This document shows positions 32,120 to 48,778 of a stretch of DNA of 64,000 bases, one piece after another. Positions within the stretch are counted from its first letter, which is position 1; each line of letters starts with the position of its first letter. Source of the stretch: Minisyncoccota bacterium. Its GTDB lineage: Bacteria > Patescibacteriota > Minisyncoccia > Phycocordibacterales > UBA9973. The DNA lies in assembly GCA_036517535.1 (NCBI GenBank), contig DATDVS010000028.1:295-64294 (forward strand), given 5' to 3'. The notes beneath the pieces were generated by a model, which did not search any database, was not told the origin of the DNA, and worked only from the letters and a program-made list of their open reading frames with translations. The translations under genes and the position numbers were made by a program.

Positions 32120-33778
32120 ATGAATTCTATCACTAAAATCTGTGCTGATTGCAGACAAGAATTCATAATAGATGAGGGGGATTTAAAGTTATACGAAAAA
32201 ATCGGACTCAAGCTTCCGACTAAATGTTTTGACTGCCGAATGAAGCAGTATTTTATATTTTCTATTTTTGGAAAGTTCCGCAAAGGGGTGTCTGACTTAT
32301 CAGGAGAGAGTTTGATTACTGTGCTGCCAAACAAGCCCAGATTCCCGATTTATCATTCTCATGAGTGGTGGGGTGATAGCTGGGATTCCATGTCCTACGG
32401 CCAAGATTATGATCCTGGGCGCTCATTTTTTGACCAGCTGAAAGAACTTCAAGAGAAAGTGCCTCGCCCGCACCAGATAGGACAAAATAATTTAAATTGT
32501 GATTGGTGTGATGATGCCTGGAACTGTAAAAATTGCTACCTTTCTCGCTCAATGGATAAATGTGAGAATTTGAGCTATGCCTACCGGGCAATTGATAGCA
32601 AGGACTCATTTGACATATTTTATAGCTTTAACCTCCAGAATTCTTATGACTGCTTGTTTTGTCACGACTCTTTCAATCTAAATTTTTCAGAAAATTCTCG
32701 GGATTGTATAGATTCATATTTCCTCTTTGACTGCCGTAACTGTCAGAATTGCTTTATGAGCTGGAATTTAAGGAATAAACATTATTGCATAAGGAATAAA
32801 CAATACACAAAAGAAGAATATGAAAAAGAATTAAATAAAATCAAACTTGACTCGTACGAGAATATAAAAAAATTAAGAACTGAATTTGAAGAAATATTGA
32901 GAAAAGAGGGAGTGCATAGGGAGAATTTCAACATCCGGTCGACTGGTTCCGTGGGGAACTATATGACTGATTGCGATAAATGCGTAAATGTTTTCTCATG
33001 GGAGGAATCACAAAATTGTCGCAACTGTATGCGCGGACTACGCTCGAAAGATTGCATTGATATGGGATTTTCCTGGAACCTGGAACTCTCCGGCAACAAC
33101 GGTGTGGTGGATGGCGGCTATCAGATCAAGCATTCGGGCGGGTCTTCTACTGGCAGATTCTCTGAATATGTGGATTTGTGTAAAGAAGTCGAGTATTGCT
33201 TTGGCTGTATCGGCCTTCGCAAAAAGAAATATTGTATTTTAAATAAAGAATACACGAAAGAAGAATATGAGAAACTAAAAGTACAAATCATAGCTGATAT
33301 GGAGAAGCGAGGAGAGTATGGCGAGTATCTCCCGTATTCGATGGGCACAGGGGATTATAATTTATCAAATGGGATAGTTTATTTCCCCAATATGACCAGA
33401 GAGGAAGTTTTAAGAAATGGTGGATACTGGTCTGACGAGGATTTGTCGCAGACAGACGGCGTTCCGTCTTCAGAATTACCTGATAGTATTTTAGATACCA
33501 CCCCCGAAGTTTCTTCCAAGGCACTTATTTGTCCGGAAAGTCATTATAGATTCAACATTGCTCAGACAGAATACGAATTTCATAAAAGGAAAAATTTTGC
33601 TTTACCACGGATTCACTTCGATAAAAGAATTATGGATAGAATGCGCAAAATGTCCATTATGAAAAACTACCCCTACCAATGTTTTTACTGTAAAGCTGAT
33701 ATAATGGCTTATTATCCGCCGGAATGGGGATACCAGAAGATTGCCTGCGAGGAATGTTATAAGCAGAACATAGCATGA
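32120..33778 (+). CDS. Cys-rich multi-zinc-ribbon protein, family member 1 (most divergent)
   Basis: 552 aa, paralog of members 2-6. Keeps the N-terminal CxxC...CxxC and both YC(I)xNKxYTKEEYEK caps. Several C-terminal module cysteines are replaced. Confidence 0.8.
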   Translation: MNSITKICADCRQEFIIDEGDLKLYEKIGLKLPTKCFDCRMKQYFIFSIFGKFRKGVSDLSGESLITVLPNKPRFPIYHSHEWWGDSWDSMSYGQDYDPGRSFFDQLKELQEKVPRPHQIGQNNLNCDWCDDAWNCKNCYLSRSMDKCENLSYAYRAIDSKDSFDIFYSFNLQNSYDCLFCHDSFNLNFSENSRDCIDSYFLFDCRNCQNCFMSWNLRNKHYCIRNKQYTKEEYEKELNKIKLDSYENIKKLRTEFEEILRKEGVHRENFNIRSTGSVGNYMTDCDKCVNVFSWEESQNCRNCMRGLRSKDCIDMGFSWNLELSGNNGVVDGGYQIKHSGGSSTGRFSEYVDLCKEVEYCFGCIGLRKKKYCILNKEYTKEEYEKLKVQIIADMEKRGEYGEYLPYSMGTGDYNLSNGIVYFPNMTREEVLRNGGYWSDEDLSQTDGVPSSELPDSILDTTPEVSSKALICPESHYRFNIAQTEYEFHKRKNFALPRIHFDKRIMDRMRKMSIMKNYPYQCFYCKADIMAYYPPEWGYQKIACEECYKQNIA

Positions 33779-33838
33779 CCTCTCCCTAGCCCTCTCCTTG
33801 GCAAGGAGAGGGGAAAAGCAAGGGGTGAGGTGAATTTT
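33777..33838 (+). repeat. hairpin-plus-RBS repeat, copy B
   Basis: GACCTCTCCCTAG-CCCTCTCCTT-GGC-AAGGAGAGGG-GAAAAGCAAGGGGTGAGGTGAATTTT, followed by the ATG at 33839. Confidence 0.8.
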
Positions 33839-35536
33839 ATGAATCCACAAACCAAAAATTGTCCGAATTGTAAAAAGGACTTTACTATAGAAAGTGAAGA
33901 TTTTAATTTCTATGAGAAAGTAAAAGTCCCTCCGCCGACTTGGTGCCCGCTGTGCCGCCAGCAAAGGCGCTATGCCTGGCGCAACGAGCGCACGCTGTAC
34001 CGCAGAAATTGCGATCTATGCGGCAAATCGACGGTGACCATTTACTCTCCGAATAAACCACACAAGATGTATTGCCAATCCTGCTGGTGGGGTGACGGCT
34101 GGGATCCGGCTTCTTTCGGAGTTGATTTTGACTTTTCCCGCCCATTTTTTGACCAATTTCATGAACTCCAGCTCCGGGTGCCGCGCATGGCCCTTTTGAG
34201 TAAAAACAGCGTAAATTCTGAATACACCAATCACTCCGGAGACGACAAAAATGTTTATCTTTCCTTCGCGGCCTGGTCGGCGGAAGATGTCCTATACAGC
34301 ACCTGGGTTATGAAGTCTCGGGATTGCATGGATTGCAGTTTCATATACGACAAGGGCGAACGCTTGTATGAAGTAATCGACTCCCGCACTTCTTACGAAT
34401 GCCAATACAGTATTTTCCTGAAGGACTGCTCTTCTTGTTATTACTGCTATGATTGCCACGGCTGCAATGAATGCTTTATGTCCTACAATTTACGCAATAA
34501 AAGTTATGTCTGGCGAGGTCAGCAACTAAGCCGGGAAGAATATATGAAAAAGAAGAAAGAGCTTGAGATGACTTCTTTTACAGAACGCCAAGGGCTTTTA
34601 CAAGAGTTCCAAGATACGATAGAGCAAAGTGCCATTCATCGATATGTGGTCTCCGAGCGCAATGTAAACTCTGTCGGCTCTCTTATTTTTGATTGCAAAA
34701 ATGTCAAACAATCCTTTGAGGTGAACGGTGCCGAGGATTGTAAATATATTTACGGGGGCCTGGATATGAAAGATTGCATGGATATATACCATGTCGGCTG
34801 GCATACTACCGAGCTTTGCTATGAACTGCATGGCTGTACACGGGTAGCCAATTGTAAATTCTGCCATCTTTGTTATGACAACAACAGTGTGTCCTACTCT
34901 GACAGTTGCCAGAACAGCCAGAATCTTTTCGGTTGCGTGAGCATTAAAAAAGGCGAATATATGATTTTCAATAAAAAATACAGCAAGGAAGATTACCTGG
35001 CGCTCAAGGAGAAAATTATCGAGCATATGAAGAAAACCGGGGAATACGGGGAATTCTTCCCGCCTGCCATTGCGCCGGTATACTACAACGAAACGCAGGG
35101 TATTCTGTATGATCCATTGACTAAAGAGGAAGTTCTGTCCAAAGGCTGGCATTGGGAGGATAATGTGCCGGGGACAAAAGGCAAAGAAACGATCAGCAAT
35201 AAAGACATCCCGGATAAGATTGAAGATGTGCCCGATACATTCTTGAAAGAAGTTTTTGCCTGCGATGCTTGCTCGAAGAATTACAACATCACCCAAAACG
35301 AGCTTCTGTTTTACCAAAAAGAAAAAATTCCTTTGCCGCGCAAATGCCCGAACTGCAGATACAAAAGGCGTTTTGATCTGCGCCCGCTCCGCAAGCTCTG
35401 GCACAGGGGGTGTATGTGTGACAAATCCGGCCATGACCACGCGGGAATCTGTAAAAATGAATTTGAGACTTCCTACGCTCCGGAGAGGAAAGAGAAAGTC
35501 TACTGCGAGTCCTGCTATAACAAAGAAGTGTATTAA
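33839..35536 (+). CDS. Cys-rich multi-zinc-ribbon protein, family member 2
   Basis: 565 aa from the ATG that follows the shared GGTGAGGTGA RBS; the ORF track begins 9 nt earlier at a GTG. Full complement of N- and C-terminal ribbons. Confidence 0.85.
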   Translation: MNPQTKNCPNCKKDFTIESEDFNFYEKVKVPPPTWCPLCRQQRRYAWRNERTLYRRNCDLCGKSTVTIYSPNKPHKMYCQSCWWGDGWDPASFGVDFDFSRPFFDQFHELQLRVPRMALLSKNSVNSEYTNHSGDDKNVYLSFAAWSAEDVLYSTWVMKSRDCMDCSFIYDKGERLYEVIDSRTSYECQYSIFLKDCSSCYYCYDCHGCNECFMSYNLRNKSYVWRGQQLSREEYMKKKKELEMTSFTERQGLLQEFQDTIEQSAIHRYVVSERNVNSVGSLIFDCKNVKQSFEVNGAEDCKYIYGGLDMKDCMDIYHVGWHTTELCYELHGCTRVANCKFCHLCYDNNSVSYSDSCQNSQNLFGCVSIKKGEYMIFNKKYSKEDYLALKEKIIEHMKKTGEYGEFFPPAIAPVYYNETQGILYDPLTKEEVLSKGWHWEDNVPGTKGKETISNKDIPDKIEDVPDTFLKEVFACDACSKNYNITQNELLFYQKEKIPLPRKCPNCRYKRRFDLRPLRKLWHRGCMCDKSGHDHAGICKNEFETSYAPERKEKVYCESCYNKEVY

Positions 35537-35538
35537 TA

Positions 35539-35599
35539 AGTTATAAAGTAGAAAGTTCATAAAGTTATAAAGTAAATAAAATGAACTCTGAAACTAAAA
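35539..35599 (+). repeat. 61-bp perfect direct repeat, copy 1 (intergenic motif block plus first 6 codons of member 3)
   Basis: Identical to 37326-37386: AGTTATAAAGTAGAAAGTTCATAAAGTTATAAAGTAAATAAAATGAACTCTGAAACTAAAA. Confidence 0.9.
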
Positions 35600-37323
35600 C
35601 ACATTCGAATATCTCAGTGTCTACGACTTGCCAGAATTGTAAAAAAGATTTCACCATCGAGCCAGATGATTTCTCTTTTTACGAGAAAATAAAGGTCCCG
35701 CCACCGACCTTCTGTCCGGAATGCCGAAGGCAGAGACGGCTTGTTTGGCGGAACGAGCGAACGCTCTATAAAAGGAAGTGCGATTTATGCCAGAAAAACG
35801 TCATTGCGATGTACCATGAATCTGTACCATTTCCGGTGTATTGCCGGGAATGCTGGTATGGCGACGGCTGGGATCCAAAATCATACGCCCGGGAGTACAA
35901 CATGAATAAATCGTTTTTCGAACAATATCACGAATTATCTAATGTTGTCCCTAAACTCGCCCTTTGGCAGAGAAACTCCATAAACTCCGATTACTCGAAC
36001 TATGTTGGTGAGTCCAAAAATGTTTATCTCTCGGCTTCGGTGGTAAAAAATTCGGAAAACATTTTTTATTCAAAATCCATAGATGGATGCAGAGATATTG
36101 TAGATTGCTTTAATATTATCAATGGTTCAGAAAGTTTGTATGAAAATGTTGAAGCGCAAGGGAATTATGATTCGCAATATCTCCTGCTTTGCCGAAGTTG
36201 CCTAGATTCTTATTATTCGGTTGATTGTATAAATTGCAGCAATTGTTTTCTATCTCATAATTTACGCAATAAGAAATTTTGTATCCGCAATAAACAATAC
36301 ACCAAAGAAGATTATTTTAAAGAACTGGAAAAATTTAATTTAAAGAGTCGGACTTCGCGTCAAATTTTACTAAAAGAATTTGAAAAAATAAAAAAGCAGG
36401 CCATTTATCGTTTCGGTAACATAACCAAATGCGTGAATGTTACCGGAAATAATTTGTTAAATGTAAAGAATTCAAAAGATTGTTTTGAAATATACGATAC
36501 TGAAAATTCTAAGTATGGCTACAGAGCCTTTTCACTGAAGGATTGTATGGATTTTGATTACGGGGGTTGGTCCGAGCTTCTTTATGAATACACGACAGGC
36601 GCGCTCAATCACTACAATGTTCATTTTACTTATTCTGCTATGGAGTCGGTCAGAAATGCCGACTATACGGAGTGGTGCAGAAATTGTAGCAATATTTTCG
36701 GTTGCATTTCGCTTAACAATGCCAAGTATATGATTTTAAACAAAGTTTATCCGAAAGAAGAATACATGAAATTAAGAGAACAAATTATCAAACAAATGAG
36801 CGCCACTCTTTTTAAGGATAAAAAAGGGAGGGTTTATAAGTATGGTGAATTTTTCCCGATTGAGCTCTCTCCCTGGGCATACAATGAAACCTTGGCGCAG
36901 GAATTTCACCCCACAACGAAACAGAAGGCGGAAGAAAACGGTTATTCATGGCGAGAGCCAAGTAAAAAAAATTTTGAAATCACAACCCCAGCGGATAAAA
37001 TCCCAGACGACATAGATGATGTAGCTGAAGAAATTATGAGCAAAGTGCTGGGCTGCGCTCACTCGGGAAATTGCAATCATCAATGCACTTCCGCTTTCCG
37101 TATCACGGATTATGAATTGAAATTCTACAAGAAACATGATATTCCCTTGCCGGATAAATGCCCAAATTGCAGATACTATGAAAGAGTGGCAGTTATGCCT
37201 GGATTAAAGTTGTACAAAAGGGTTTGCATGAAATGCAAAGTAGTAGAATTTGAAACTGCGTATGCTCCAGACCGGCCAGAAAAGATTTACTGTGAATCTT
37301 GTTATAATAAAGAAATATACTGA
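35581..37323 (+). CDS. Cys-rich multi-zinc-ribbon protein, family member 3
   Basis: 580 aa paralog with intact second N-terminal ribbon (CDLCQK...VYCRECWYGDGWDP). Confidence 0.85.
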   Translation: MNSETKTHSNISVSTTCQNCKKDFTIEPDDFSFYEKIKVPPPTFCPECRRQRRLVWRNERTLYKRKCDLCQKNVIAMYHESVPFPVYCRECWYGDGWDPKSYAREYNMNKSFFEQYHELSNVVPKLALWQRNSINSDYSNYVGESKNVYLSASVVKNSENIFYSKSIDGCRDIVDCFNIINGSESLYENVEAQGNYDSQYLLLCRSCLDSYYSVDCINCSNCFLSHNLRNKKFCIRNKQYTKEDYFKELEKFNLKSRTSRQILLKEFEKIKKQAIYRFGNITKCVNVTGNNLLNVKNSKDCFEIYDTENSKYGYRAFSLKDCMDFDYGGWSELLYEYTTGALNHYNVHFTYSAMESVRNADYTEWCRNCSNIFGCISLNNAKYMILNKVYPKEEYMKLREQIIKQMSATLFKDKKGRVYKYGEFFPIELSPWAYNETLAQEFHPTTKQKAEENGYSWREPSKKNFEITTPADKIPDDIDDVAEEIMSKVLGCAHSGNCNHQCTSAFRITDYELKFYKKHDIPLPDKCPNCRYYERVAVMPGLKLYKRVCMKCKVVEFETAYAPDRPEKIYCESCYNKEIY

Positions 37324-37325
37324 TT

Positions 37326-37386
37326 AGTTATAAAGTAGAAAGTTCATAAAGTTATAAAGTAAATAAAATGAACTCTGAAACTAAAA
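37326..37386 (+). repeat. 61-bp perfect direct repeat, copy 2
   Basis: Identical to 35539-35599. Confidence 0.9.
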
Positions 37387-39059
37387 AATGTGAAAGCTGC
37401 AGTAAAGATTTCGTCATCGAACCAGACGATTTTGGGTTCTATGAGCAGATGAAGGTTCCGCCGCCAGTATGGTGTCCAGACTGTCGGAGACTGCGCCGCA
37501 TGGCTTGGTACGGTTATAGAATTTTATACAAGCGCAAGTGCGATTTTACCGGAGAAAATATAATCACATTTTATCATCCGGATTTGCCTTATAAAGTTTA
37601 CAAGCAGGACGTCTGGTGGAGTGATAAATGGGACCCAAAAAGCTATGGGAGGGAGTATGATTTTTCTCGGCCATTTTTCGAGCAATATAAAGAATTAATG
37701 GATGAAGTGCCCAAAGCATCACTCCACACGGAATATACCACTATGATCAATAGTGAATATTGCAATGCGGCCAGCTTTCAGAAAAACGGGTATCTTTGCT
37801 TTAAACATATTAAAGGCGAAGACGCTGCATATACCAATGTTGTTTTGAATATAACAAATTGTTTAGACGTGGCGTACTCGGTTGATCTAGATCTTTGTTA
37901 TGAAACGGTTGATGTAGGACATTGTTTCCAATCTTTTTTCGTGCAAGATTGTCATACCTCTCAAAATCTTTATTTTTGCCGAGATTTGGTGAATTGTAGT
38001 AATTGTATAGGTTGTACTTCTTTGCGTAATAAAAGTTATTGTATTTTTAATGAGCAGTTCACTAAAGAAGAATATGAAAAGAAAATGAAGGAATTCGATT
38101 TTGGGTCCATGGCAAATTTACAGAAATTCAAAACAAAAGCATACGAGTTTTCTTTAAAATTTCCGCGGCGAGCGTTAAGGGGCGTAAATAATGTAAATAC
38201 TTCCGGTGAATATGTATATAATTCAAAAAATACGCGTGATGTATACTATGTTTCCGATTCCGAGAATGTGCGGTATGCCCAATTGTTTATTAAAGGCGGG
38301 GCTCATAATTGCCATGATTTTACCGCCTTTGGAACGAGCTCAGAGTGGGTGTATGAAGCAACATGGACTGGATACAATACTTCAAATGTGAAATTTAGCG
38401 TCTGGAATTATCGCAACCACGACACCGAATATACTTTTGGCTGCCACGGTTCTGAATACTTATTTGGCTGCGTCGGATTAAACAAGGGTTCCTATTGTAT
38501 TTTCAATAAGCAATACACCAAGGAGGAATATTTCCCTATGGTAGAAAAAATAAAAAAACAAATGGCTGAAATGCCGTTCGTAGACAGGAGGGGACTGAAG
38601 CACGGCTACGGCAGTCAAATCCCCATTGACTTATGCCCTTGGGCTTATAATGAAACTACCGCTTATGAATTTTTCCCGATAACTAAGGCAGAAGCCCTCT
38701 CCAAAGGCTTTACTTGGCGCGATGCAGACGAAAAAGAATATCTGCCTGCTAGTATGCTAGTACCAGATCATATCAAAGACGTGACGGACGAGGTACTGAA
38801 AGCCGTTTTGAAATGCGAGGCTTGCGGCAAAAATTATCAGATTATCCAAAAAGAACTACAATTCTTACGCCGGTCTAATCTGCCTATCCCGCGACATTGC
38901 CCGCTCTGCCGCGACCGTGCCCGCATCAAGCAAATGAATCCGATGGAGATGTATGACCGCAATTGTGATAAATGCAAAGCCAAAATTCAAACTTCTTACG
39001 CCCCGGACCGCCCGGAGATTGTGTATTGCGAAGATTGCTATAAACAGGAAGTGTACTAG
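37368..39059 (+). CDS. Cys-rich multi-zinc-ribbon protein, family member 4
   Basis: 563 aa paralog. Ends ...RPEIVYCEDCYKQEVY. Confidence 0.85.
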   Translation: MNSETKKCESCSKDFVIEPDDFGFYEQMKVPPPVWCPDCRRLRRMAWYGYRILYKRKCDFTGENIITFYHPDLPYKVYKQDVWWSDKWDPKSYGREYDFSRPFFEQYKELMDEVPKASLHTEYTTMINSEYCNAASFQKNGYLCFKHIKGEDAAYTNVVLNITNCLDVAYSVDLDLCYETVDVGHCFQSFFVQDCHTSQNLYFCRDLVNCSNCIGCTSLRNKSYCIFNEQFTKEEYEKKMKEFDFGSMANLQKFKTKAYEFSLKFPRRALRGVNNVNTSGEYVYNSKNTRDVYYVSDSENVRYAQLFIKGGAHNCHDFTAFGTSSEWVYEATWTGYNTSNVKFSVWNYRNHDTEYTFGCHGSEYLFGCVGLNKGSYCIFNKQYTKEEYFPMVEKIKKQMAEMPFVDRRGLKHGYGSQIPIDLCPWAYNETTAYEFFPITKAEALSKGFTWRDADEKEYLPASMLVPDHIKDVTDEVLKAVLKCEACGKNYQIIQKELQFLRRSNLPIPRHCPLCRDRARIKQMNPMEMYDRNCDKCKAKIQTSYAPDRPEIVYCEDCYKQEVY

Positions 39060-39103
39060 ATCAAGGTGTATAACTTTCTAGCATATGCTGAAATCTTATA
39101 CAC

Positions 39104-39628
39104 CTAGACCTTCATCGCTTTCAGAAACGAAAATTTTGTCTCTTCGTCGAGTTTGTCGGTAACGATGATCATGAGCTCGGTGGCGAGGCCGAGGTCTTTT
39201 TTGATATTAATGAAAAGGTTCTCATAAGGGAGAGGGGAGATCCAGACGGTATTTTTTATACAGACAAAATTTGCTTTCTTCAGGAGGTAGCGCAGGCTCT
39301 CACGCTCGGCTTTGCGCTCTTCCGGCAGATCCAAAATAATTATTCGCCACTGGCCGTCCCAAGAAGTATTTACGAGAGTGGTGTCGTTATCTAACTGCAA
39401 ACTATGCACTTTTTTCCTACCTTCTTTCGTCAGTCGAGCATACTGATTTTGTGTCGTGGAAATTTGTTCAATGAGCCCTGCTTCCCGCAGGCCTTTTAGA
39501 GAGCGAGTTACTGCGTATTTGTCATTCAATACAGAGGCAACGCCTCCGTATAGCTCCGGCAGGGAAATAGCTTTTTTTTGGTCTAGAATCTTTAATATTT
39601 TTCTAGAATAGTCCTTTTTGCTTGACAT
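39104..39628 (-). CDS. winged-helix regulator with a PaaX-C/Cas2-like C-terminal domain
   Basis: 174 aa. N-terminal wHTH-like region. C-terminal WDGQWRIIILDLPEERKAERESLRYLLKKANFVCIKNTVWISP matches the PaaX C-terminal / Cas2-fold pattern. Confidence 0.55.
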   Translation of the reverse strand: MSSKKDYSRKILKILDQKKAISLPELYGGVASVLNDKYAVTRSLKGLREAGLIEQISTTQNQYARLTKEGRKKVHSLQLDNDTTLVNTSWDGQWRIIILDLPEERKAERESLRYLLKKANFVCIKNTVWISPLPYENLFINIKKDLGLATELMIIVTDKLDEETKFSFLKAMKV

Positions 39629-39665
39629 ACTTATAGCCTATCATATATACTGATTTATACAAGTT

Positions 39666-39681
39666 TTTCGCGACCGCGAAA
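39666..39681. promoter_or_regulatory. inverted repeat in the regulator/dnaK divergent intergenic region
   Basis: TTTCGCG-AC-CGCGAAA, followed by ATGCAT. Confidence 0.35.
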
Positions 39682-39699
39682 TGCATGTAAAACAGGTCT

Positions 39700-39734
39700 A
39701 ACTTTATAAACTTTATAACTTTTAACTTTATAAC
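39700..39734. repeat. intergenic motif block, reverse orientation, directly upstream of dnaK
   Basis: AACTTTATAAACTTTATAACTTTTAACTTTATAAC, then the ATG. Confidence 0.7.
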
Positions 39735-41642
39735 ATGAGTAAGATAATTGGTATAGATTTGGGGACAACAAACTCGGCAATAGCTGTCATTGAAGGTGGT
39801 GCACCGAAGATTATTGAAAATTCAGAAGGTGCCCGCACCACGCCTTCAGTCGTGGCTGTGGCGAAAAATGGCGACCGCCTGGTGGGCTTGCTCGCCAAGA
39901 GGCAGGCAGTCACTAATCCGGAGAATACTATTTACGGCATCAAGCGCTTCATGGGTCACAATTTTGACGATCCGGAAGTGCAGAAGGATTTAAAGACTGC
40001 ATCTTTCAAGGTGCAAAAAGCAGCGAATGGCGGAGTAGAAGTAAAGATTGGCGATAAATGGATGCGCCCGGAAGAAATTTCCGCGATGATCCTGTCTAAA
40101 ATAAAAGCAGATGTGGAAGCCAAGCTGGGAGAAAAGATTACCGAAGCGGTCATCACCGTGCCGGCATATTTCAACGATGCGCAAAGAAAAGCGACAAAGG
40201 ACGCGGGGCAGATCGCGGGCCTGGATGTAAAGCGAATTATCAACGAGCCGACAGCTGCCGCTTTGGCATACGGATTTAATAAAAAGAAAAATGAAAAGAT
40301 TGTGGTCTACGATTTCGGTGGTGGAACTTTCGATGTGTCCGTGCTCGAGATAGGGGATGATGTCATCGAGGTGAAGTCTACAGATGGCGACAGCCACTTG
40401 GGCGGACGCGATATCGACCAGAAGATCATGAACTGGATCGCCGAGGAATACAAGAAGACTTCCGGGGTGGATGTGCGTTCCGATAAATTGGCCCTCCAGC
40501 GCTTGGATGAGGCGGCTGAGAAAGCCAAAATAGAGCTCTCTACCGCGGTAGAGACAGAGATCAATATTCCATTTATTACCTCTACAGCCGAGGGCCCTCA
40601 GCACCTCCTGCTAAAAATGACCCGCGCTCAATTGGAATCACTGGCAGATGAGTACATTACTCGCTCCATAGACATCGCCAAGCGCGCGATGGCGGCCTCC
40701 GGTTTCAAAATCGAAGATATGCATGAGGTTGTGATGGTGGGCGGACAGACGCGCATGCCGAAGATTGTGGAGGAAGTGAAGAAGTTTTTTGGCAAGACTC
40801 CGAACTTGAGTATTAATCCAGATGAAGTGGTAGCTCTCGGCGCTGCGGTGCAGGCCGGAGTATTGCAGGGGGACGTACGCGACGTATTACTCCTCGACGT
40901 TATCCCGCTTTCGCTCGGTATCGAGACCTTGGGCGGGGTGGCTACTAAATTGATCGAGAGAAACACGACTATCCCTTCTAACAAATCCCAAGTATTCTCT
41001 ACTGCGGCGGACAATCAAACCTCGGTGGAAATTCATATCGTCCAGGGTGAGCGCCCGATGGCCTCCGACAATAAGTCTCTGGGCCGATTTATCCTCGACG
41101 GCATCCCACCATCACCGCGTGGTATGCCCCAGGTGGAAGTGTCCTTCGATGTGGATGCCAATGGGATACTCAACGTGACAGCGAAAGATAAAGCTTCCGG
41201 CAAGACTCAATCCATCAAGATTGAAGCAAGCTCGGGCCTCAAAGAAGATGAAATAAAGAAAATGCAGCAAGATGCGGAAATTCACGCGGAGGAAGATAAA
41301 AAAAAGAAGGATACAGTTGAAGTTAGAAATACTGCTGAAATGATAATTTATACGGCTGAAAAGGGGCTCAAAGACGCGGGTGATAAAGTCCCGGCCGAGG
41401 TGAAGAGCGGAGTGGAAGCGAAAATTTCCGCCCTTAGAGCTCTAAAGGACGGCACGGATGTGGACGCGATCAAAAAAGCAACCGAGGAACTCTCAAACGA
41501 AATGTCGAAAATTGGGGAGGCGATGAGTAAGGCCGGTCCTTCGTCGAGCTCAGGATCTACGACGCCCGAAGAGCAGCCTGCGGAAGTTACAGACGTAGAA
41601 CACGAAGAAAAGCCAAAAGAGAAAGGAGAGGAGGAGAAATAA
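39735..41642 (+). CDS. dnaK: molecular chaperone DnaK (Hsp70)
   Basis: 635 aa. [18 protein letters not shown] and the canonical substrate-binding domain. Confidence 0.97.
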
Positions 41643-41728
41643 TTTTCCACAGGTTTGCTTGTGAGCGAATTAAAATAATATTAAGATTGATAGATGGCCG
41701 ATATTAGTAATTAATAATTATTATAATT

Positions 41729-41908
41729 ATGGATAACAATAATTCTTCAGGTACAAACACCATCCTTATCGTAGTTGTTCTCGTCATCATTGTTGGTTTG
41801 GCAGTCTGGTGGTTTACTGCTAGAAACAATACTAATGACACATCAGGCGTCGATGTAAATGTTACCCTGCCAACAGGAGATGATTCTTCTGGAGGCGCAA
41901 CTCAGTAG
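41729..41908 (+). CDS. small membrane protein (59 aa)
   Basis: Not in the ORF track. MDNNNSSGTNTILIVVVLVIIVGLAVWWFTARNN... has one TM helix. A strong terminator follows. Confidence 0.45.
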   Translation: MDNNNSSGTNTILIVVVLVIIVGLAVWWFTARNNTNDTSGVDVNVTLPTGDDSSGGATQ

Positions 41909-41930
41909 AATTTGAATTAAATAGAAAATA

Positions 41931-41966
41931 AGCAAAAAAGCCCTTGCAATATAGGGCTTTTTTGCT
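41931..41966. terminator. bidirectional rho-independent terminator
   Basis: AGCAAAAAAGCCCT-TGCAATAT-AGGGCTTTTTTGCT, a perfect 14-bp stem. Confidence 0.75.
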
Positions 41967-41994
41967 TGACTTTTACATAAAAATGTGATACACT
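41966..41994 (+). promoter_or_regulatory. sigma70-type promoter with an extended -10
   Basis: TTGACT, 17 nt between hexamers, TGaTACACT. Confidence 0.55.
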
Positions 41995-42070
41995 TGCATT
42001 GTTATCAGGATTGAACCCCTGGTAATCTCTACGAAAAGTTTCGTGGAGTTTGTACATCGAAGGAAGCCAC

Positions 42071-42274
42071 ATGGAAGTCAAGCGACAGGGTGAAATCGCC
42101 TTCTTGCTTTTGAAACATCGCATTCGAAGGGAAGGAGCGACGATCTCGCAGAACGACGCGCGAGAGCTGGGAGACACCGCAAAAGCAATTGGTGTTCCAT
42201 TAGAGGAGCTCAAAGAGTTCGTCAGGCCCCTGCTGCACGACCTCGTCGATGAGTTCCTGTCCACCAAGAAGTAA
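42071..42274 (+). CDS. small hypothetical protein (67 aa)
   Basis: Start taken at Met 8 of ORF 42050-42274, preceded by AAGGAAG 5 nt upstream. Helical-looking sequence with no motif recognised. Confidence 0.45.
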   Translation: MEVKRQGEIAFLLLKHRIRREGATISQNDARELGDTAKAIGVPLEELKEFVRPLLHDLVDEFLSTKK

Positions 42275-42276
42275 TC

Positions 42277-42374
42277 TTGGAAAACTAGGGTGGAGCTTCG
42301 GCTCCCTAAAAGGGTAATTGCATCCCTCGCTTCGGCGAACAGATGCAGAACAAGAACCTAACCCCGTTTTCCAA
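42277..42374 (+). ncRNA. candidate structured RNA (three-way junction), class unknown
   Basis: Closing helix TTGGAAAAC/GTTTTCCAA plus GGGT/ACCC. Hairpin GGAGC-UUCG-GCUCC. Hairpin TGCATC..TCGC-UUCG-GCGA..GATGCA. Confidence 0.4.
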
Positions 42375-42381
42375 AACACAC

Positions 42382-42424
42382 CGGACTGGTTCAGCGCTTG
42401 CGCTGGGCCGGTCCGTTTCTACTT
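42382..42424 (+). terminator. GC-rich hairpin plus T-rich tail
   Basis: CGGACTGG-tt-CAGCG-CTTG-CGCTG-gg-CCGGTCCG, followed by TTTCTACTTTT. Confidence 0.6.
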
Positions 42425-42448
42425 TTACTTCAAAAATTTATAAATAAA

Positions 42449-42457
42449 TGATACAAT
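42449..42457 (+). promoter_or_regulatory. extended -10 element (TGaTACAAT)
   Basis: Lies 9 nt upstream of the ATG at 42467. Confidence 0.45.
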
Positions 42458-42466
42458 ACTACAAAT

Positions 42467-44491
42467 ATGGAGCTCCCGGCATTGCCTATAAATAGGGATA
42501 TTACTTACCTCGGTTTTACCACTTACCGCGACAAGAACCAGCTTTTCGGCATAAAGCGCAAGGATAGGCGCCAGCATGTTTATATTCTCGGAAAGTCCGG
42601 TACCGGTAAATCCGTCCTGATGTTCAACATGATTATCCAGAATATCCTGAACGGCGAGGGCGTGTGCGTGGTGGACCCGCACGGCGAGCTCGTCGAGGGC
42701 GTGCTCTCTGCTATCCCGCCGCATCGCATGAAGGACGTGATTTATTTCAATCCAGCCGATACGGAATACCACATCGGCTTTAACGTCCTCGAATTGATCG
42801 ACCCGAAGTACAAGCACCTGGTGGCCTCGGGGCTCATGGGCATATTTACGAAAATTTGGGCCAACGCCTGGTCGGCCCGTATGGAATATATTTTAAATAA
42901 CTGCATTCTCGCCCTCCTCGACACCCCAGGCACCACGCTCCTCGGCATCCCCCGCATGCTGGTGGACAAGGATTACCGCCAGAAAATAATTTCTAATTTA
43001 AAAGACCCGGTGATCAAGGCTTTCTGGGTCCACGAGTACGAGGCCTGGCAGGATAAATTCAGAAACGAAGCCATCGCGCCGATTCAAAACAAGGTCGGGC
43101 AATTCCTTTCTACCTCAATCATCCGCAACGTCGTTGGCCAGTCGAAAAGCACCATCAACATTTTTGACATAATGAACGAGGGCAAGATTTTCCTCATAAA
43201 CGTTTCCAAAGGACGCATCGGCGAGGACAACTCGGCCCTACTCGGAGGCATGATCATTACCAAGATCCAGCTTGCCGCCATGGAGCGCGTGCGCATACCG
43301 GAGGAGGACCGTCGGGACTTTTATTTATACGTCGACGAATTCCAAAACTTCGTTACCGATGCCTTCGCTGGCATCCTCTCGGAGGCCCGAAAATATCGCC
43401 TGAACCTCACCGTGGCGCACCAGTATACTGCTCAGCTTGTCTCGGACAAGAGCTCGGCCGTGCGCGATGCCGTATTCGGCAACGTGGGTACGATGATCGT
43501 TTTTCGCGTAGGCGCGGACGACGCTGATTTCCTAGAAAAAGAATTTGAACCGGAGTTTACTCCGCAGGACATCGTGAACCTGCCGAACTACAAGATATAC
43601 CTGAAGCTCATGATCGACGGAGTGACCTCGCGGCCTTTTTCCGCCAAGACTTTGCCGCCGATACTAAAGCCGAACGAAAAACACATCGAAGAAGAAGTCA
43701 TCCGTTCTTCTCGGGCGCTCTACTGTAAATCCAAAGAAGTAGCCGAGCGGGAGATCAACGACTGGAGCGGGATGTCGCTCGGCGAGGATAATGCCGTCGG
43801 CAATATTGAGAGATTCGATGCGATATGTTCGGTTTGCCGCAAGCCGACCACGGTGCCTTTCAAGCCCGAGCCCGGCCGGCCGGTGTATTGCAAGGACTGC
43901 ATAGCCAAGATGAAGTCCGGCGAGATAAAGCCGATAGAAGGCTCCATGAATCAAATCAAGCGCGATGAAACTAAATTTTACAAGCCGCTTGCCGATCTGG
44001 GCATCGAATTTCAGCAAAAAGCGCCGGAGAGGGAAGGCGAGAATAGAAAGGCTTTCAAGCCCAGAGAAAACAGAGAGAATTTCGCCTTAAAAGAAGTTCT
44101 CAAAAAAACTCTCGGCACGGCCTCTGTTCCCGTGGAGCCAGTTGCCCCCACCCCGCCTCCCGCAATTTCACTTGATTCGCTTAAATCTAAAATGAATCCT
44201 TCGCAAAGCTCAGGACCAAAGGACCGCGGAGCCAGCCATGCGGACATGGATAAGCTGAAGAATTTTATTGAAGAGAAAGTTATCGAACCCGAGAAAGCTA
44301 CGCCGGAGCAGCAAAATTCCTCGCGCTTTACCCGTCAAAATCCGCCGGGCTCCGACGCGACTCAGAATTCTGCTGCTCCGGCTCCGCGACCCGATTCACC
44401 ACCCAAGCCTAACCCTTCGACAGACTCAGGGTCTTCGGCTAATAAGCCTCGGGAAGTTCCGGAGGACGTGCTAAGAAAAATTCTAGAATAA
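42467..44491 (+). CDS. TraD/TrwB/VirD4-like (type IV coupling-protein-type) P-loop NTPase, no TM segment, C-terminal zinc ribbon and Pro-rich tail
   Basis: 674 aa. Walker A ILGKSGTGKS, VVDPHGE, Walker [12 protein letters not shown], and AHQY. Ribbon CSVCRKPTTVPFKPEPGRPVYCKDC at nt 43826-43900. Confidence 0.75.
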   Translation: MELPALPINRDITYLGFTTYRDKNQLFGIKRKDRRQHVYILGKSGTGKSVLMFNMIIQNILNGEGVCVVDPHGELVEGVLSAIPPHRMKDVIYFNPADTEYHIGFNVLELIDPKYKHLVASGLMGIFTKIWANAWSARMEYILNNCILALLDTPGTTLLGIPRMLVDKDYRQKIISNLKDPVIKAFWVHEYEAWQDKFRNEAIAPIQNKVGQFLSTSIIRNVVGQSKSTINIFDIMNEGKIFLINVSKGRIGEDNSALLGGMIITKIQLAAMERVRIPEEDRRDFYLYVDEFQNFVTDAFAGILSEARKYRLNLTVAHQYTAQLVSDKSSAVRDAVFGNVGTMIVFRVGADDADFLEKEFEPEFTPQDIVNLPNYKIYLKLMIDGVTSRPFSAKTLPPILKPNEKHIEEEVIRSSRALYCKSKEVAEREINDWSGMSLGEDNAVGNIERFDAICSVCRKPTTVPFKPEPGRPVYCKDCIAKMKSGEIKPIEGSMNQIKRDETKFYKPLADLGIEFQQKAPEREGENRKAFKPRENRENFALKEVLKKTLGTASVPVEPVAPTPPPAISLDSLKSKMNPSQSSGPKDRGASHADMDKLKNFIEEKVIEPEKATPEQQNSSRFTRQNPPGSDATQNSAAPAPRPDSPPKPNPSTDSGSSANKPREVPEDVLRKILE

Positions 44492-44492
44492 A

Positions 44493-46253
44493 ATGCAGTC
44501 CGAAACTAAAATCTGCCAAAATTGCAAGAAAGATTTTACGATAGACTCGGAGGATTTTAATTTCTATGAAAAGATCAAGGTCCCTCCACCGACTTTTTGT
44601 AATCTTTGCCGAGCGCAGAGGCGGCTATCATTCAGAAATGAAAGAAAACTTTTCAAAATAAAGGACGCCTTAACAGGCAAGGAAATTTTTTCTACCTATC
44701 CAGCTGAAAGCGGCAGGAAGATAATTACTCGCGATGCGTGGCTCAGTGACAATTGGGATCCCATGGATTATGAACAGGATTATGATTTCTCTCGCTCGTT
44801 TTGGGAGCAACAGCAAGAGCTCGAGAAGAAAGTTTACATGTACAACTTTAATGTCATAAGGATGGTAAATAGTCCTTATGCATTTAATGCCACAGCGCTT
44901 AAAAACAGCTACCTAGTCGTTAATTCAAGCTATTCCGAGGATTGTATGTACGGCAATGCGATTGATCGCTCTAAGGACTGCGTAGACAATTCGCATATCA
45001 ATGAATCTGAACGCTGCTATGAATGCTTCTGGTTGCGTAAATGCTACCAATGCTATTTCACTATAATGTCAGCTGATTGTCGCAATATGTGGTTTTCTAG
45101 GGATTGCCTGGGTTGCAATGACTGCTTTGGTTGTGTCAATTTGCGTAAAAAATCATATTGTATTTTCAATAAGCAATACACTAAAGGTGAGTATGAAAAG
45201 GAAATTTATAGAATGAAGCTCCATACAAATTCTGGGTTAAAAGAAGCCAGGGAAAAAGCCAGAGAATTTTGGGCGACGCAAATCACCCGGCACCAACAAG
45301 GCGTAAGAAATTTAAATTCAACTGGGTCTTATGTTACTGACTGCAAAAATGTGAATGATAGTTATTTAATTAGGGAAAGTGAGAACATGCGCTACTGTCA
45401 GTATTTGCAGGTGCCCGGGAACAAAGACAATTATGATGTCAGTAATTGGGGTGAAGATACGGAGCTGTGTTATGAATGCATAGAATGCGGTCAGAGTTCG
45501 TATAACAATAAATTTTCTAGGAACTGCTGGCCAGCGTGCCGGAATCTAGAATATTGCGTGCATCTTTTTAGCTCCTCTGACTGCTTTGGTTGTGTTGGGC
45601 TCAAAAAAGCCCAATATTGCATTTTTAACAAGCAATACACAAAAGAAGAATATAAGAAGTTGGTAGAAAAAATTAAAAAACACATGGATGAGATGCCCCA
45701 TATAGATTCCCAAGGATTAGTCTATAAATACGGAGAGCTTTTCCCCATGGAATTTTCACCATTCGGATACAATAATACTTTAGCCGCACAGCATTTTCTT
45801 TTGTCCAAAGCAGAAGCGGAAGCAAAAAATTACCAGTGGATAGAAACCGAGAGAGGGGAGTATAAAACCACCATAAAGGCCGGAGAGTTGCCCGAAGAAA
45901 TAGAAAATACCGCCAATAATATTTTGAAAGAAGTGATAGAGTGCGAATCCTGCAATAACCCTTACCGGATCTTAGAAAACGAGTTAATTTTCTTAAAACG
46001 GGAAAAGATCCCTGTTCCCCGTATCTGCAGTGAATGCAGGCATGAACGCAGAATAAATGATCGACTGAAACTATTTCTATATGAACGTACATGTAAATGT
46101 GCCGGGGTTTCCGACGAAACAGGGAAATATAAAAATACGGTAGCTCATCATCACAAAGATGCTCCATGTGGAGAGGTTTTTAAAACCGGCTACTCACCCG
46201 ACTCACCGCAGATAGTCTATTGCGAAAAGTGTTATCAGGCGGAAGTATACTAG
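44493..46253 (+). CDS. Cys-rich multi-zinc-ribbon protein, family member 5
   Basis: 586 aa paralog. The ATG lies 1 nt after the ATPase stop. Confidence 0.85.
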   Translation: MQSETKICQNCKKDFTIDSEDFNFYEKIKVPPPTFCNLCRAQRRLSFRNERKLFKIKDALTGKEIFSTYPAESGRKIITRDAWLSDNWDPMDYEQDYDFSRSFWEQQQELEKKVYMYNFNVIRMVNSPYAFNATALKNSYLVVNSSYSEDCMYGNAIDRSKDCVDNSHINESERCYECFWLRKCYQCYFTIMSADCRNMWFSRDCLGCNDCFGCVNLRKKSYCIFNKQYTKGEYEKEIYRMKLHTNSGLKEAREKAREFWATQITRHQQGVRNLNSTGSYVTDCKNVNDSYLIRESENMRYCQYLQVPGNKDNYDVSNWGEDTELCYECIECGQSSYNNKFSRNCWPACRNLEYCVHLFSSSDCFGCVGLKKAQYCIFNKQYTKEEYKKLVEKIKKHMDEMPHIDSQGLVYKYGELFPMEFSPFGYNNTLAAQHFLLSKAEAEAKNYQWIETERGEYKTTIKAGELPEEIENTANNILKEVIECESCNNPYRILENELIFLKREKIPVPRICSECRHERRINDRLKLFLYERTCKCAGVSDETGKYKNTVAHHHKDAPCGEVFKTGYSPDSPQIVYCEKCYQAEVY

Positions 46254-46287
46254 GTATAACAGATTTGAACGGCCGTCTAAAAGTGTT

Positions 46288-48033
46288 ATGAATCAAGAAA
46301 CTAAAAACTGCCAGAATTGCAAAAAGGATTTCACGATCGAGCCGGAGGATTTTAATTTCTATGAAAAGATCAAAGTTCCACCGCCGACGTTTTGTCCGGA
46401 ATGTCGGGCGATTCGGCGATTGATTTGGCGTAATGAAAGATCGTTATATCATAATATCTGTGCTTTTTCGGGTAAGAAAATAATCTCAATGTTCTCTCCG
46501 GAAACAAATCTAGTAGTATACGACCGTGATATCTGGTGGAGCGATAAATGGGACCCCACATCCTATGGCCAGGAGTATGATTTTTCCAAACCATTTTTCA
46601 CGCAATTTCAAGAATTGATGTCGAAAGTCCCTCTTGCTAATTTAGGTAATACCAACAGCCCAAAAAGTGAATATGGCAACCATAATGCAGACTGCAAAAA
46701 TTGTTATTTGGTATATGCATCGTTTAGCAACGAAAACTGCTCTTATTCGAATGGCTTGGTCAATACAAAAGATTCATTAGACTTATACAAAGTTACTAAA
46801 TCCGAGCAATGCTACAACAGCACTCTGTGTGCAAGCTGCTACAACACTCATTTTTCCTATGACAGCGATGAATGCATCGATTCGATGTTTTTGACGTCGT
46901 GTCTAGGATTGCATAATTGCCTAGGATGCATTAATTTACGCCATAAACGCTATTGTATTTTCAATGAGCAATATACCCAAGAAGAATACGAAAGAAGGGC
47001 GGCCAGCTATAATCTGGGTAGTTATGAAGGCCTAAAAAGATTTGAGGAAGAATATAAGAATTTCATAAAAGATCAGTTCCGGCGCTTTGCATTTATTTTT
47101 AAATCTATAAATGTCACAGGGGATAATATTATGTTCGCTAAAAATAGTAGAATGCTTTTCGACAGCTATGGAGATGTGGAAAACTGCAGTTATATTACCC
47201 ACGCAGTCAATATTAAAGACAGCCAGGATGCTTATGGTACCGGCGCTAAAATGGAATTGTTGTACGAAGGCGTGGATTGCGGGATTAATGCTTACAATAT
47301 GCATTTCTGCGTTTTAGCTCATAGTTGTGTCGATGTGGATTATACATATATGTGTTTTGGTTCAAGCAAGCTATTTGGCTGTATCGGCTTGCGCAATCAG
47401 GAATATTGTATTTTAAACAAGAAATATTCAAAAGAAGAGTATGAAAAATTACGAGCAAAGATCATCAAACACATGAATACTATGCCGTATGTAGACAAAC
47501 AGAGCAGAGTATATAAATACGGAGAATTCTTTCCGGCCGAACTCTCGCCCTTTGCATACAGTGAAACTATCGTGGAAGAGTATTATCCTCTCAATAAGAA
47601 AAAAGCTTTAGATTATGGGCTCAAAATAAAAGAAAAAGTGTCCAGAGACTATAAAATAGATTTAGCAACAGAAGAATTACCCGACCATATAAAAGATACC
47701 AATGAGAGCATAGCAGGAAAGGTAGTTGAATGCATGCATAAAGGTACTTGCAAGGAACAATGCACTGAGGCATTTAAGATTACTGCCGAAGAATTACAAT
47801 TTTATAAAAAAATAAATATAGCCCTACCTCGGCTATGCCCGAACTGCCGGCACTTCCAGAGGCTTGCGAAACGCAATCCCCTGAAGCTCTGGCACAGGGC
47901 GTGTATGTGTGAGAAGGAAGGCCATGACCATGACAAGGTTAAACCTTGTCCAAATGAATTTGAAACCAGCTATGCGCCGGAGAGGCCGGAGATAATTTAC
48001 TGTGAGAAATGCTATCAGAAGGAAGTTTACTGA
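46288..48033 (+). CDS. Cys-rich multi-zinc-ribbon protein, family member 6
   Basis: 581 aa paralog. Ends ...RPEIIYCEKCYQKEVY. Confidence 0.85.
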   Translation: MNQETKNCQNCKKDFTIEPEDFNFYEKIKVPPPTFCPECRAIRRLIWRNERSLYHNICAFSGKKIISMFSPETNLVVYDRDIWWSDKWDPTSYGQEYDFSKPFFTQFQELMSKVPLANLGNTNSPKSEYGNHNADCKNCYLVYASFSNENCSYSNGLVNTKDSLDLYKVTKSEQCYNSTLCASCYNTHFSYDSDECIDSMFLTSCLGLHNCLGCINLRHKRYCIFNEQYTQEEYERRAASYNLGSYEGLKRFEEEYKNFIKDQFRRFAFIFKSINVTGDNIMFAKNSRMLFDSYGDVENCSYITHAVNIKDSQDAYGTGAKMELLYEGVDCGINAYNMHFCVLAHSCVDVDYTYMCFGSSKLFGCIGLRNQEYCILNKKYSKEEYEKLRAKIIKHMNTMPYVDKQSRVYKYGEFFPAELSPFAYSETIVEEYYPLNKKKALDYGLKIKEKVSRDYKIDLATEELPDHIKDTNESIAGKVVECMHKGTCKEQCTEAFKITAEELQFYKKINIALPRLCPNCRHFQRLAKRNPLKLWHRACMCEKEGHDHDKVKPCPNEFETSYAPERPEIIYCEKCYQKEVY

Positions 48034-48090
48034 CCTCTCCCTAACCCTCTCCTTGGCAAGGAGAGGGGAAAGAAAGGGGTGAGGTGAATT
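48032..48090 (+). repeat. hairpin repeat, copy C (no downstream + strand gene)
   Basis: GACCTCTCCCTAA-CCCTCTCCTT-GGC-AAGGAGAGGG-GAAAGAAAGGGGTGAGGTGAATT. Lies between convergent member 6 and rsmE. Confidence 0.8.
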
Positions 48091-48742: not shown

Positions 48743-48750
48743 GGTATCTA

Positions 48751-48759
48751 TGATATAAT
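48751..48759 (+). promoter_or_regulatory. extended -10 element (TGaTATAAT)
   Basis: Lies 19 nt upstream of the ATG at 48779. Confidence 0.4.
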
Positions 48760-48778
48760 CAAACCATAAATATTCCAA

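Follow-up and report, generated by a model that had tools for sequence, protein, structure and literature searches.

An unnamed Paceibacteria protein family with terminal zinc-ribbon-like modules and a duplicated repeat core is recurrently encoded beside VirD4-like ATPases

Six plus-strand genes (members 1–6) in the window, a 64,000-nucleotide stretch of contig DATDVS010000028.1 from a metagenome-assembled genome (MAG) deposited as 'Candidatus Paceibacterota bacterium', encode proteins that are, with a confidence close to certainty, ancient paralogs within one very large Paceibacteria family. This family falls under no known family, only its terminal ribbons resembling known domains, and its proteins are cytoplasmic and probably non-enzymatic. 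The association of its genes with soluble VirD4-like ATPases is recurrent, operon-tight and non-obligatory. Few bacteria are as abundant, and as poorly understood, as Paceibacteria, and the family ranks among the larger gene families that they have, yet we found for it no name, core domain model, structural relative or literature; its recurrent position behind the ATPases offers a testable handle on what a minimal genome devotes so much coding capacity to.

The six open reading frames (ORFs) had been picked out by a first-pass annotation made from the sequence alone, and an ORF check confirmed each at its proposed position (Table 1). Their description as obvious paralogs is upheld by BLASTP, which aligned all six over full length at 31–45% identity (E 3e-72 to 6e-171), as is the large share of the window ascribed to them: together they occupy 10.3 kb, or 16%. 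No seventh copy was found in the window by tblastn with each member. An exact look-up identified the deposited records for the six copies (HEY4494163-66, -72 and -73), every one a 'hypothetical protein'. Member 1 is the most divergent of the six, with a degenerate C-terminal ribbon and no EVY tail. For member 2 we favour the ATG at 33839 over an upstream GTG at 33830 because it matches the MN(S/Q)ETK start of the paralogs and the deposited 565-aa protein. Clustering with members 5 and 6 is P0352, a protein of 1,147 aa taken from a read-archive assembly; a fusion of the adjacent genes for these two members by read-through or frameshift would account for this length.

A word-indexed search returned more than 7,000 relatives, all of them unnamed or 'hypothetical'. 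When 1.84 billion cluster representatives (clusters at 50% identity) were searched exhaustively by profile, 5,528 clusters matched at E≤1e-3, of which 2,335 reached E≤1e-30; every one of the top 150 was full length (523–612 aa). A search of one genome per GTDB species gave at least 565 confirmed stretches. The best 80 of these (at least 565) records carried the names Nomura-, Staskawicz-, Giovannoni-, Jorgensen-, Kaiser-, Wolfe-, Niyogi- or Sungiibacteria, Minisyncoccia, Paceibacterota or Patescibacteria group, or non-specific names such as 'uncultured bacterium'; other labels among the matches listed were an automatic 'Saccharibacteria' and one 'Burkholderiales'. A few such doubtful labels aside, the family was seen only in records named as Patescibacteria or Paceibacteria. 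The MAG contig labelled Burkholderiales (JAMPXW010000002.1) has a gene order like that of the window (a family gene, A1, two family genes, A2, DnaJ, arginase; A1 and A2 being the ATPases described below), and many 'uncultured Candidatus Saccharibacteria' loci also have a Paceibacteria-type gene order. The Burkholderiales and Saccharibacteria labels are probably binning or naming errors. Phage records, plasmid records and IMG/VR contigs held no copy of the family, and a mobile-element origin was rejected on this ground. Copies often number 5–10 per genome of ∼0.6–0.8 Mb, and orthologs of members 2–6 in other genomes are 70–82% identical, compared with the far lower identities among the window paralogs. 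Judged by these identities, the paralogs are ancient and individually conserved.

All members share one layout (residue numbering here follows member 6, the reference copy): a zf_Tbcl module and a ribbon of CxxC-x17-CxxC-like type, two core repeat domains (M1 and M2), an acidic linker domain, and a second zf_Tbcl module with a CxxC-x17-CxxC ribbon. In full, the order is N-terminal module, M1 with cap 1, helical hairpin, M2 with cap 2, long helix, acidic linker domain and C-terminal module. We compared a 148-sequence alignment with itself by hhalign, which detected two internal duplications. Residues 103–241 match 252–392 (probability 99.5%, E 2e-23) and residues 8–82 match 482–575 (probability 98%, E 1e-13), in agreement with the duplicated middle segments and the C-terminal repetition of the N-terminal module that the first-pass annotation had read from the translations. 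The conserved caps, the (L/I)P(D/E)xIxD motif of the linker and the E-(V/I)-Y C-terminus of five of the six copies are likewise as it had described them.

Although each protein contains 23–41 Cys, only 12 are near-invariant across the 148 sequences, namely C8/C11/C36/C39, C482/C492/C517/C520 and C539/C554/C572/C575; the first four are invariant and the second four at least 99% conserved. Exact CxxC-x17-CxxC spacing occurs at the C-terminus of member 4 and at the N-terminus of members 2 and 3, a His-rich insertion splits the first knuckle of the C-terminal ribbon in members 2, 5 and 6, and in members 1, 4, 5 and 6 the Cys of the N-terminal copy of this ribbon are gone. The proposal that only members 2 and 3 have a second N-terminal ribbon therefore holds, intact Cys being found there alone. 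We infer from the motifs that each protein has three conserved Cys4 zinc sites, and members 2 and 3 a fourth. Zinc binding has been demonstrated by inductively coupled plasma mass spectrometry for two small Methanosarcina mazei proteins with CxxC-x17-CxxC domains (PMC12704099). The earlier label of cysteine-rich multi-zinc-ribbon proteins thus suits these Cys4 sites and does not extend to a metal-studded core. In the core, Cys makes up 15–90% of each Cys column, the remainder being Ser, Leu, Val, Thr or Ile. Since core Cys exchange with Ser, Leu, Val and Thr, they are packing residues, not metal ligands; these columns carry the sequence signature of small buried packing positions rather than of conserved ligands. 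A metal cluster at the CxxCxxCxxC preceding cap 1 was considered and rejected, its columns being 52–95% Cys and exchanging with Ser and Leu.

The periodicity of the core fits a solenoid. Cys–Cys spacings in M1 fall at multiples of three only, with 2–3.5-fold enrichment there and approximately zero otherwise, out to lag 36. Written in 12-residue rows, M1 and M2 align in every paralog as approximately nine repeats of x-x-x-[S/C]-x-[N/D]-[C/S]-x-[Y/F]-x-x-x, each consisting of two 6-residue half-turns. AlphaFold2 produced models of member 5 (predicted local distance difference test score (pLDDT) 88.4, predicted template modelling score (pTM) 0.89) and member 6 (pLDDT 86.1, pTM 0.88), and in the model of member 5 beta-bridges recur at 6-residue steps throughout M1. 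The solenoid-like character originally suggested for these segments fits the repeat, the 6-residue bridges and the beta-helix proteins in the tail of the Foldseek search described below, whereas the period of 15–20 residues suggested with it was wrong, the true period being 12. As modelled, the core is consistent with a narrow beta-solenoid-like fold, yet lies outside every solved solenoid class. Confirmation of the fold by a solved structure would place the core in a new class of solenoids, cytoplasmic and with a 12-residue repeat.

We searched for known relatives of both the modules and the whole protein. Pfam and NCBIfam searches of the six copies matched only the terminal ribbons, to zf_Tbcl (PF13451) and zf_Tbcl_2 (PF23477)/TIGR04272, all below threshold: zf_Tbcl scored 14.8–21.0 bits against a gathering threshold of 24 bits, with no match in member 5, and the best scores for the second domain were 23.2–23.6 against 27 bits in Pfam and 15.6–18.5 against 36 bits in NCBIfam. 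Among 82 diverse relatives these were the sole recurrent domain matches, with 31 members matching zf_Tbcl (E≤0.1, best E 8.5e-8) and 34 matching zf_Tbcl_2/TIGR04272. The likeness resides in the two-CxxC treble-clef pattern, present in both terminal modules of the family; as in zf_Tbcl itself, two CxxC pairs form one predicted Cys4 site around an aromatic-rich helix. These domains are themselves uncharacterised 'probable treble clef' domains of ∼40–50 residues. The ribbon domains account for ∼190 of the 580 residues of a family protein, and the 350-residue core plus linker is matched by nothing known.

Beyond the ribbons, PADLOC gave no match to the family and PHROGs a single weak one, phrog_15341, a family without assigned function, in M1 of member 1; a Med15_N match on the cap helix was dismissed as spurious. 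Assignment to a named family was rejected, the Pfam, NCBIfam, PADLOC and PHROGs searches of the six copies and 82 relatives having yielded sub-threshold ribbons. Sequence profile searches of the PDB returned only chance-level matches to LIM, RNA-dependent RNA polymerase and antifreeze proteins, and Foldseek found nothing at E<1e-3 with two models against the PDB and one against BFVD. The weak matches in its tail are nearly all to left-handed beta-helix proteins (TM-score ≤0.21; best E 0.017 and 0.031, root mean square deviation >10 Å) and to small phage zinc-ribbon proteins. The inability of the first-pass annotation to assign a named family was not overturned: none of the matches from Pfam, NCBIfam, PADLOC, PDB sequences or Foldseek spans the protein, and the Pfam, NCBIfam, PDB and BFVD searches gave no confident match to a characterised family over most of its length. 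Nor did the literature on the domain names, on protein families of the candidate phyla radiation and on type IV secretion systems (T4SS) yield a description of the family.

The nearest structural parallels are partial. With left-handed beta-helix acyltransferases and gamma-carbonic anhydrases the family shares a short 6/12-residue periodicity, but the models do not superpose on them and none of 82 members has a hexapeptide match in Pfam. The Tenebrio antifreeze protein (1EZG) has, like M1, a 12-residue repeat with Cys in register; the profile match is, however, at chance level (E 1.1), and the family proteins are unsecreted, lack disulfides and vary in their core Cys. Unlike in these beta-solenoid proteins, each solenoid of the family is duplicated and capped by a conserved strand–helix motif.

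We then considered what kind of function the conserved positions imply. In 156 sequences of 32–52% identity to member 6, 30 positions are at least 95% conserved (C8, F15, P33, C36, F103, Q106, P115, Y140, D165, N226, G278, Y352, F363, C365, N377, Y380, G412, P416, Y424, N425, C482, E502, P514, R521, R525, C539, C554, C572, C575 and Y576). Almost all are C, F, Y, P, G or N, with no catalytic-looking cluster of His, Ser, Lys or acidic residues. By this make-up an enzyme reading was rejected as unlikely, and the pattern looks structural or binding in nature and not recognisably catalytic. No transmembrane (TM) or signal-like segment was found in the six proteins (the maximum mean over 19-residue Kyte–Doolittle windows was 1.22), as had been noted at the outset. 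The modules differ sharply in mean net charge: +3.9 for the N-terminal and +5.9 for the C-terminal zf_Tbcl, against −4.1 for M1 and −6.3 for the linker domain.

The two ATPases that flank members 5 and 6 in the window, A1 and A2, both match TrwB_AAD_bind, T4SS-DNA_transf and TraG-D_C and contain Walker A and B motifs, and neither has a TM segment. Their NCBIfam scores (47–52 bits) are far under the 366-bit equivalog cut-off. A1 carries a canonical C-terminal CxxC-x17-CxxC finger at residues 448–483, scoring above the cut-offs (47.2 bits in Pfam, 47.7 bits in NCBIfam), of the same zinc-finger type as the C-terminus of the family, followed by a Pro/Ser/Lys-rich low-complexity tail of ∼190 residues. 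The deposited A1 record is named after this small zinc-finger domain.

To place these genes in context, ORFs were clustered from 81 related loci, chosen by similarity to member 6, together with the window. The loci hold 105 arrays of one to nine family genes. A VirD4/TraD/HerA-like ATPase is the sole neighbour family that recurs across contexts (38 of 82 loci), lying within two genes of 42 of the 105 arrays and, when only the 77 arrays that no contig end truncates are counted, of 32. A family gene directly follows 25 of the 68 ATPase genes, at a median gap of 19 bp (≤7 bp in 10 of the 25, and 1 nt in the window). Cassettes of the form A1–family(n)–A2 are found in either order and in two contexts that are unrelated to each other, one between DnaK and DnaJ and the other SecD/F–c11–A3–ATPase, in which c11 is a DNA-binding-type protein and A3 a membrane protein (Table 1). 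Across species the ATPases are 65–90% identical, compared with ∼40–55% for the family genes at the same loci. CutA1, a divalent-ion tolerance protein of ∼101 aa, is encoded inside or beside family/ATPase arrays at 7 of the 81 loci (L019, L029, L033, L041, L045, L053 and L073); recurrence of CutA1 and/or of c24, a small membrane protein of ∼174 aa without a Pfam match that recurs between A3 and the ATPase, was noted also in L083, L090, L093, L095 and others.

Because the first set of loci had been picked by way of member 6, we also tested the linkage from the other side, with 80 metagenome loci for which the ATPase served as anchor. Family genes were present in 35 of the 80, and in 20 of the 30 loci whose ATPase is at least 60% identical and which extend at least 2 kb downstream, being adjacent in 15. 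The first-pass annotation had imagined a system of family, ATPase and chaperone genes and had reckoned with homologs that are single-copy and without conserved linkage. Arrays in fact run to nine genes and ATPase adjacency recurs across contexts with short gaps; the linkage is at the same time not obligatory and weakens with phylogenetic distance, and that to the chaperone genes is confined to part of the loci.

A deeper conserved unit, c11–A3–(c24)–ATPase, emerged from the ATPase-anchored loci, where the ATPase follows A3 in 32 of the 34 that contain A3. In the window the c11–A3 pair lies 25 kb from the ATPases; elsewhere it is often immediately upstream of an A1/A2-type ATPase. One locus (L080) encodes a 790-aa protein in which the N-terminal part is A3-like and is fused to the ATPase domain, and phrog_5156, an 824-position phage family profile, spans both. 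The possibility that A3 is a paralog of the ATPases was rejected, since it lacks Walker motifs, shows no similarity to A2 by BLAST and had clustered with them through the fused L080 protein only. A3 and the ATPases look like a split, exapted unit of the type IV coupling-protein kind, of which A3 is likely to be the membrane half. A1 and A2 resemble VirD4, TraD and TrwB in domains and Walker motifs, and the family genes lie directly downstream, where a partner or substrate would be expected (as for TraM and TraD). In contrast to type IV coupling proteins, A1 and A2 have no N-terminal membrane domain, which is apparently supplied by the separate A3, and the family bears no similarity to TraM, relaxases or known effectors. 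No VirB4, other channel gene or relaxase was found in the window or among the recurrent neighbour clusters. A 2025 survey counted 5,713 VirD4-like homologues in 2,918 Patescibacteria genomes, approximately two per genome, of which 148 were near virB4, and its authors consider exaptation of these homologues for other functions possible (PMC12102498). The position of the family behind such orphan VirD4-like ATPases is thus a testable handle on the role of exapted coupling proteins.

From these observations we tentatively propose the following mechanism. The family protein is pseudo-symmetric, with a basic treble-clef module and a CxxC-x17-CxxC-type ribbon at each end and a duplicated, capped core and an acidic linker between them. 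Its two basic zinc modules, spaced by the rigid acidic core, may bind a polyanion, most likely nucleic acid, or a partner protein, and family members would act as specificity adaptors or cargo of the A1/A2 ATPases. A1/A2, together with A3 and c11, would form an exapted, split type IV coupling protein, and the conserved, individually orthologous paralogs would confer different specificities. We regard this adaptor or cargo mechanism with polyanion binding as possible rather than probable, for several points weigh against it. Both the ligand and the contact with the ATPase are inferred, and basic zinc ribbons are also common as protein–protein interaction modules. The AlphaFold2 models are confident except over M1, where pLDDT falls to 52–68 in member 6 and 66–88 in member 5. 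Where the ATPase is only 50–60% identical to A1/A2, family genes occur in 3 of 21 loci while c11 and A3 are usually kept; the family thus cannot be counted among the core components of the c11–A3–ATPase module. Over half of the arrays, like most single genes, are without a nearby ATPase and lie instead amid unrelated housekeeping genes, uvrABC, purL/purQ and L9 among them. Finally, choosing loci by similarity to member 6, itself A2-adjacent, inflates the apparent linkage, and many of the loci are related by descent.

Another explanation is that family members are stand-alone structural or scaffold proteins, or zinc/thiol buffers, whose adjacency to ATPases is inherited gene order. The mostly structural character of the conserved positions accords with this, as do the capped solenoid cores, which are typical of scaffolds, the 58% of arrays without an ATPase neighbour, the high Cys content and the presence of CutA1 in or by arrays at 7 of 81 loci. 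However, ATPase–family adjacency outlasts rearrangement, being kept in both gene orders and two contexts with operon-like gaps; only 12 conserved Cys would give a low metal capacity per 570 residues; and the caps argue against end-to-end polymerisation. We consider this explanation rather unlikely.

A further alternative is that the family consists of translocated effectors or surface proteins, exported hostward by A3–A1/A2 after recognition of the Arg-rich C-terminal module and its EVY end. Patescibacteria are host-dependent and their T4SS are without conjugation components (PMC12102498), and tight adjacency to VirD4-like ATPases, the membrane partner A3 (fused to the ATPase in L080), the multi-paralog arrays and the conserved C-terminus could all be understood in this way. 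Set against it are the lack of VirB4 or channel genes in the window and the arrays, the absence of a signal peptide and a C-terminus modelled as a folded zinc knuckle and not as a disordered signal. Moreover, invariant Cys4 zinc sites typify intracellular proteins, and ancient paralogs with orthologs of up to 81–82% identity are unlike fast-evolving effectors, leaving export of the family itself improbable. We attach similarly low probability to the idea that the family is the client set of a new Paceibacteria-specific translocation machine (A3, A1/A2, c11 and sometimes c24) independent of the VirB4 T4SS. If true, the zinc-ribbon/solenoid proteins would deliver nucleic acid to this machine, or be its load, in exchange with the host cell.

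The chaperone genes of the window could point to a different role. Members 1–4 follow grpE at gaps of 44–60 bp (49 bp between grpE and member 1) with no strong terminator predicted between them, and dnaJ follows A2 after 40 bp. In the 81 loci and the window, dnaJ comes after an A2-type gene for 16 of the 68 ATPase genes (gaps 7–81 bp), and many loci show the GrpE/DnaK/DnaJ order together with family genes. DnaJ and Hsp33 are known for functional zinc centres. Family members could on this basis be zinc holdases, co-chaperones or redox sensors co-expressed with GrpE–DnaK–DnaJ, with the ATPases as unfoldases. Yet a promoter-like site lies just upstream of A1, which two strong terminators part from dnaK, and no controlling inverted repeat of chaperone expression (CIRCE) was found, so that heat-shock control via CIRCE was rejected. 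The likeness to the CXXCXGXG domain of DnaJ and to Hsp33 goes no further than being Cys/zinc proteins, the family being encoded in the grpE–dnaK–dnaJ region: the zinc module is of a different type, there is no sequence or profile similarity, and no J domain, CXXCXGXG repeat or Hsp33-like match was found in the six copies and 82 relatives. The chaperone arrangement also lies inside a longer conserved block that includes arginase and CysS, and is absent from the SecDF–c11–A3 context and from single-gene loci. Because the linkage is limited to part of the loci, and single family genes elsewhere adjoin uvrABC, purL/purQ/purF/purN or ribosomal protein L9, it is most simply explained as inherited lineage synteny, which leaves room for co-expression but does not speak for a chaperone function. 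We therefore think a role in proteostasis unlikely.

Tandem paralog arrays beside ATPases of the HerA/FtsK superfamily might also be cassettes of a polymorphic, HerA-associated anti-phage system, or immunity proteins, and A1 and A2 do give weak PADLOC matches to the mad8 and HerA models. The family itself, in contrast, has no PADLOC match and is absent from the phage, plasmid and IMG/VR collections. Its core-gene synteny is conserved, and ATPases 65–90% identical across species are housekeeping-like and not what a mobile island would carry; stable position and copy number among close relatives were seen in part. With the family set in the core genome and missing from mobile elements, a defence role is unlikely, and we regard it as very improbable.

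Table 1. Positions of the family genes, the modules of member 6 and other features in the window
Feature	Position	Strand	Size	Description
Member 1	32120..33778	+	552 aa	Deposited as HEY4494163.1 'hypothetical protein'
Member 2	33839..35536	+	565 aa	Intact extra N-terminal CxxC-x17-CxxC ribbon; four predicted Cys4 sites
Member 3	35581..37323	+	580 aa	Extra N-terminal CxxC-x17-CxxC ribbon intact
Member 4	37368..39059	+	563 aa	Exact CxxC-x17-CxxC spacing in C-terminal ribbon
Member 5	44493..46253	+	586 aa	Begins 1 nt past the stop codon of ATPase A1
Member 6	46288..48033	+	581 aa	Reference copy
Member 6, N-terminal module	46288..46455	+	residues 1-56	zf_Tbcl-like treble-clef module; putative Cys4 site C8, C11, C36, C39
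Member 6, M1	46648..46971	+	residues 121-228	Core repeat domain, ∼nine 12-residue repeats, cap 1 (NLRxKxYCIxN) at end
Member 6, M2	47074..47421	+	residues 263-378	Core repeat domain, duplicate of M1; cap 2 (LFGCIGLRxxxYCILNK) at end
Member 6, acidic linker domain	47482..47721	+	residues 399-478	Conserved YGEFFP...SPFxYNET and LPDxIxD motifs
Member 6, C-terminal module	47722..48030	+	residues 479-581	Basic zf_Tbcl (C482, C492, C517, C520) and CxxC-x17-CxxC-type ribbon (C539, C554, C572, C575); EVY end
ATPase A1	42467..44491	+	674 aa	Soluble VirD4/TraD/HerA-like P-loop ATPase; Walker A and B; no TM segment
ATPase A2	48779..50254	+	491 aa	Soluble, VirD4/TraD/HerA-like; closes the A1–family–A2 cassette
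A3	15845..17323	+	492 aa	Membrane protein; no Walker motifs; no Pfam/NCBIfam match
c11	14816..15844	+	342 aa	Sigma-70 region 4 and HARE-HTH domain; conserved partner upstream of A3
dnaK–A1 spacer	41643-42466		825 bp	Two strong terminator-like hairpins
Hairpin in spacer	41929-41968			Bidirectional
Hairpin in spacer	42382-42415			15 bp, 10 GC
Small ORF in spacer	41729-41908		59 aa	One TM helix
Small ORF in spacer	42050-42274		74 aa	No Pfam match
PaaX_M (Cas2-like) domain protein	39104-39628	-		Divergent from dnaK; weak PADLOC CARF-type matches
RsmE-like ORF	48089-49060	-		GTG start as called; overlaps A2 start by ∼280 bp
ORF	22932-24530	+	532 aa	Upstream of ribosomal-protein block; no Pfam match at E≤1e-5
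ORF	25738-27015	+	425 aa	Upstream of ribosomal-protein block; no Pfam match at E≤1e-5
tRNA-Tyr (GTA)	7797-7880	-		Sole RNA gene detected in the window

Some neighbouring features bear on the reading of the region. When the window is counted with the 81 related loci, 12 have the PaaX_M gene in front of dnaK, and no hrcA was identified among the annotated ORFs of the window; because of this, and because no CIRCE element was found, the PaaX_M protein may be a local regulator of dnaK. The Pfam match of the RsmE-like ORF begins only at residue 125 (a weak PUA match), with the methyltransferase domain at 170–314; its true start is for this reason probably further downstream, and the overlap with A2 an artefact of ORF calling.

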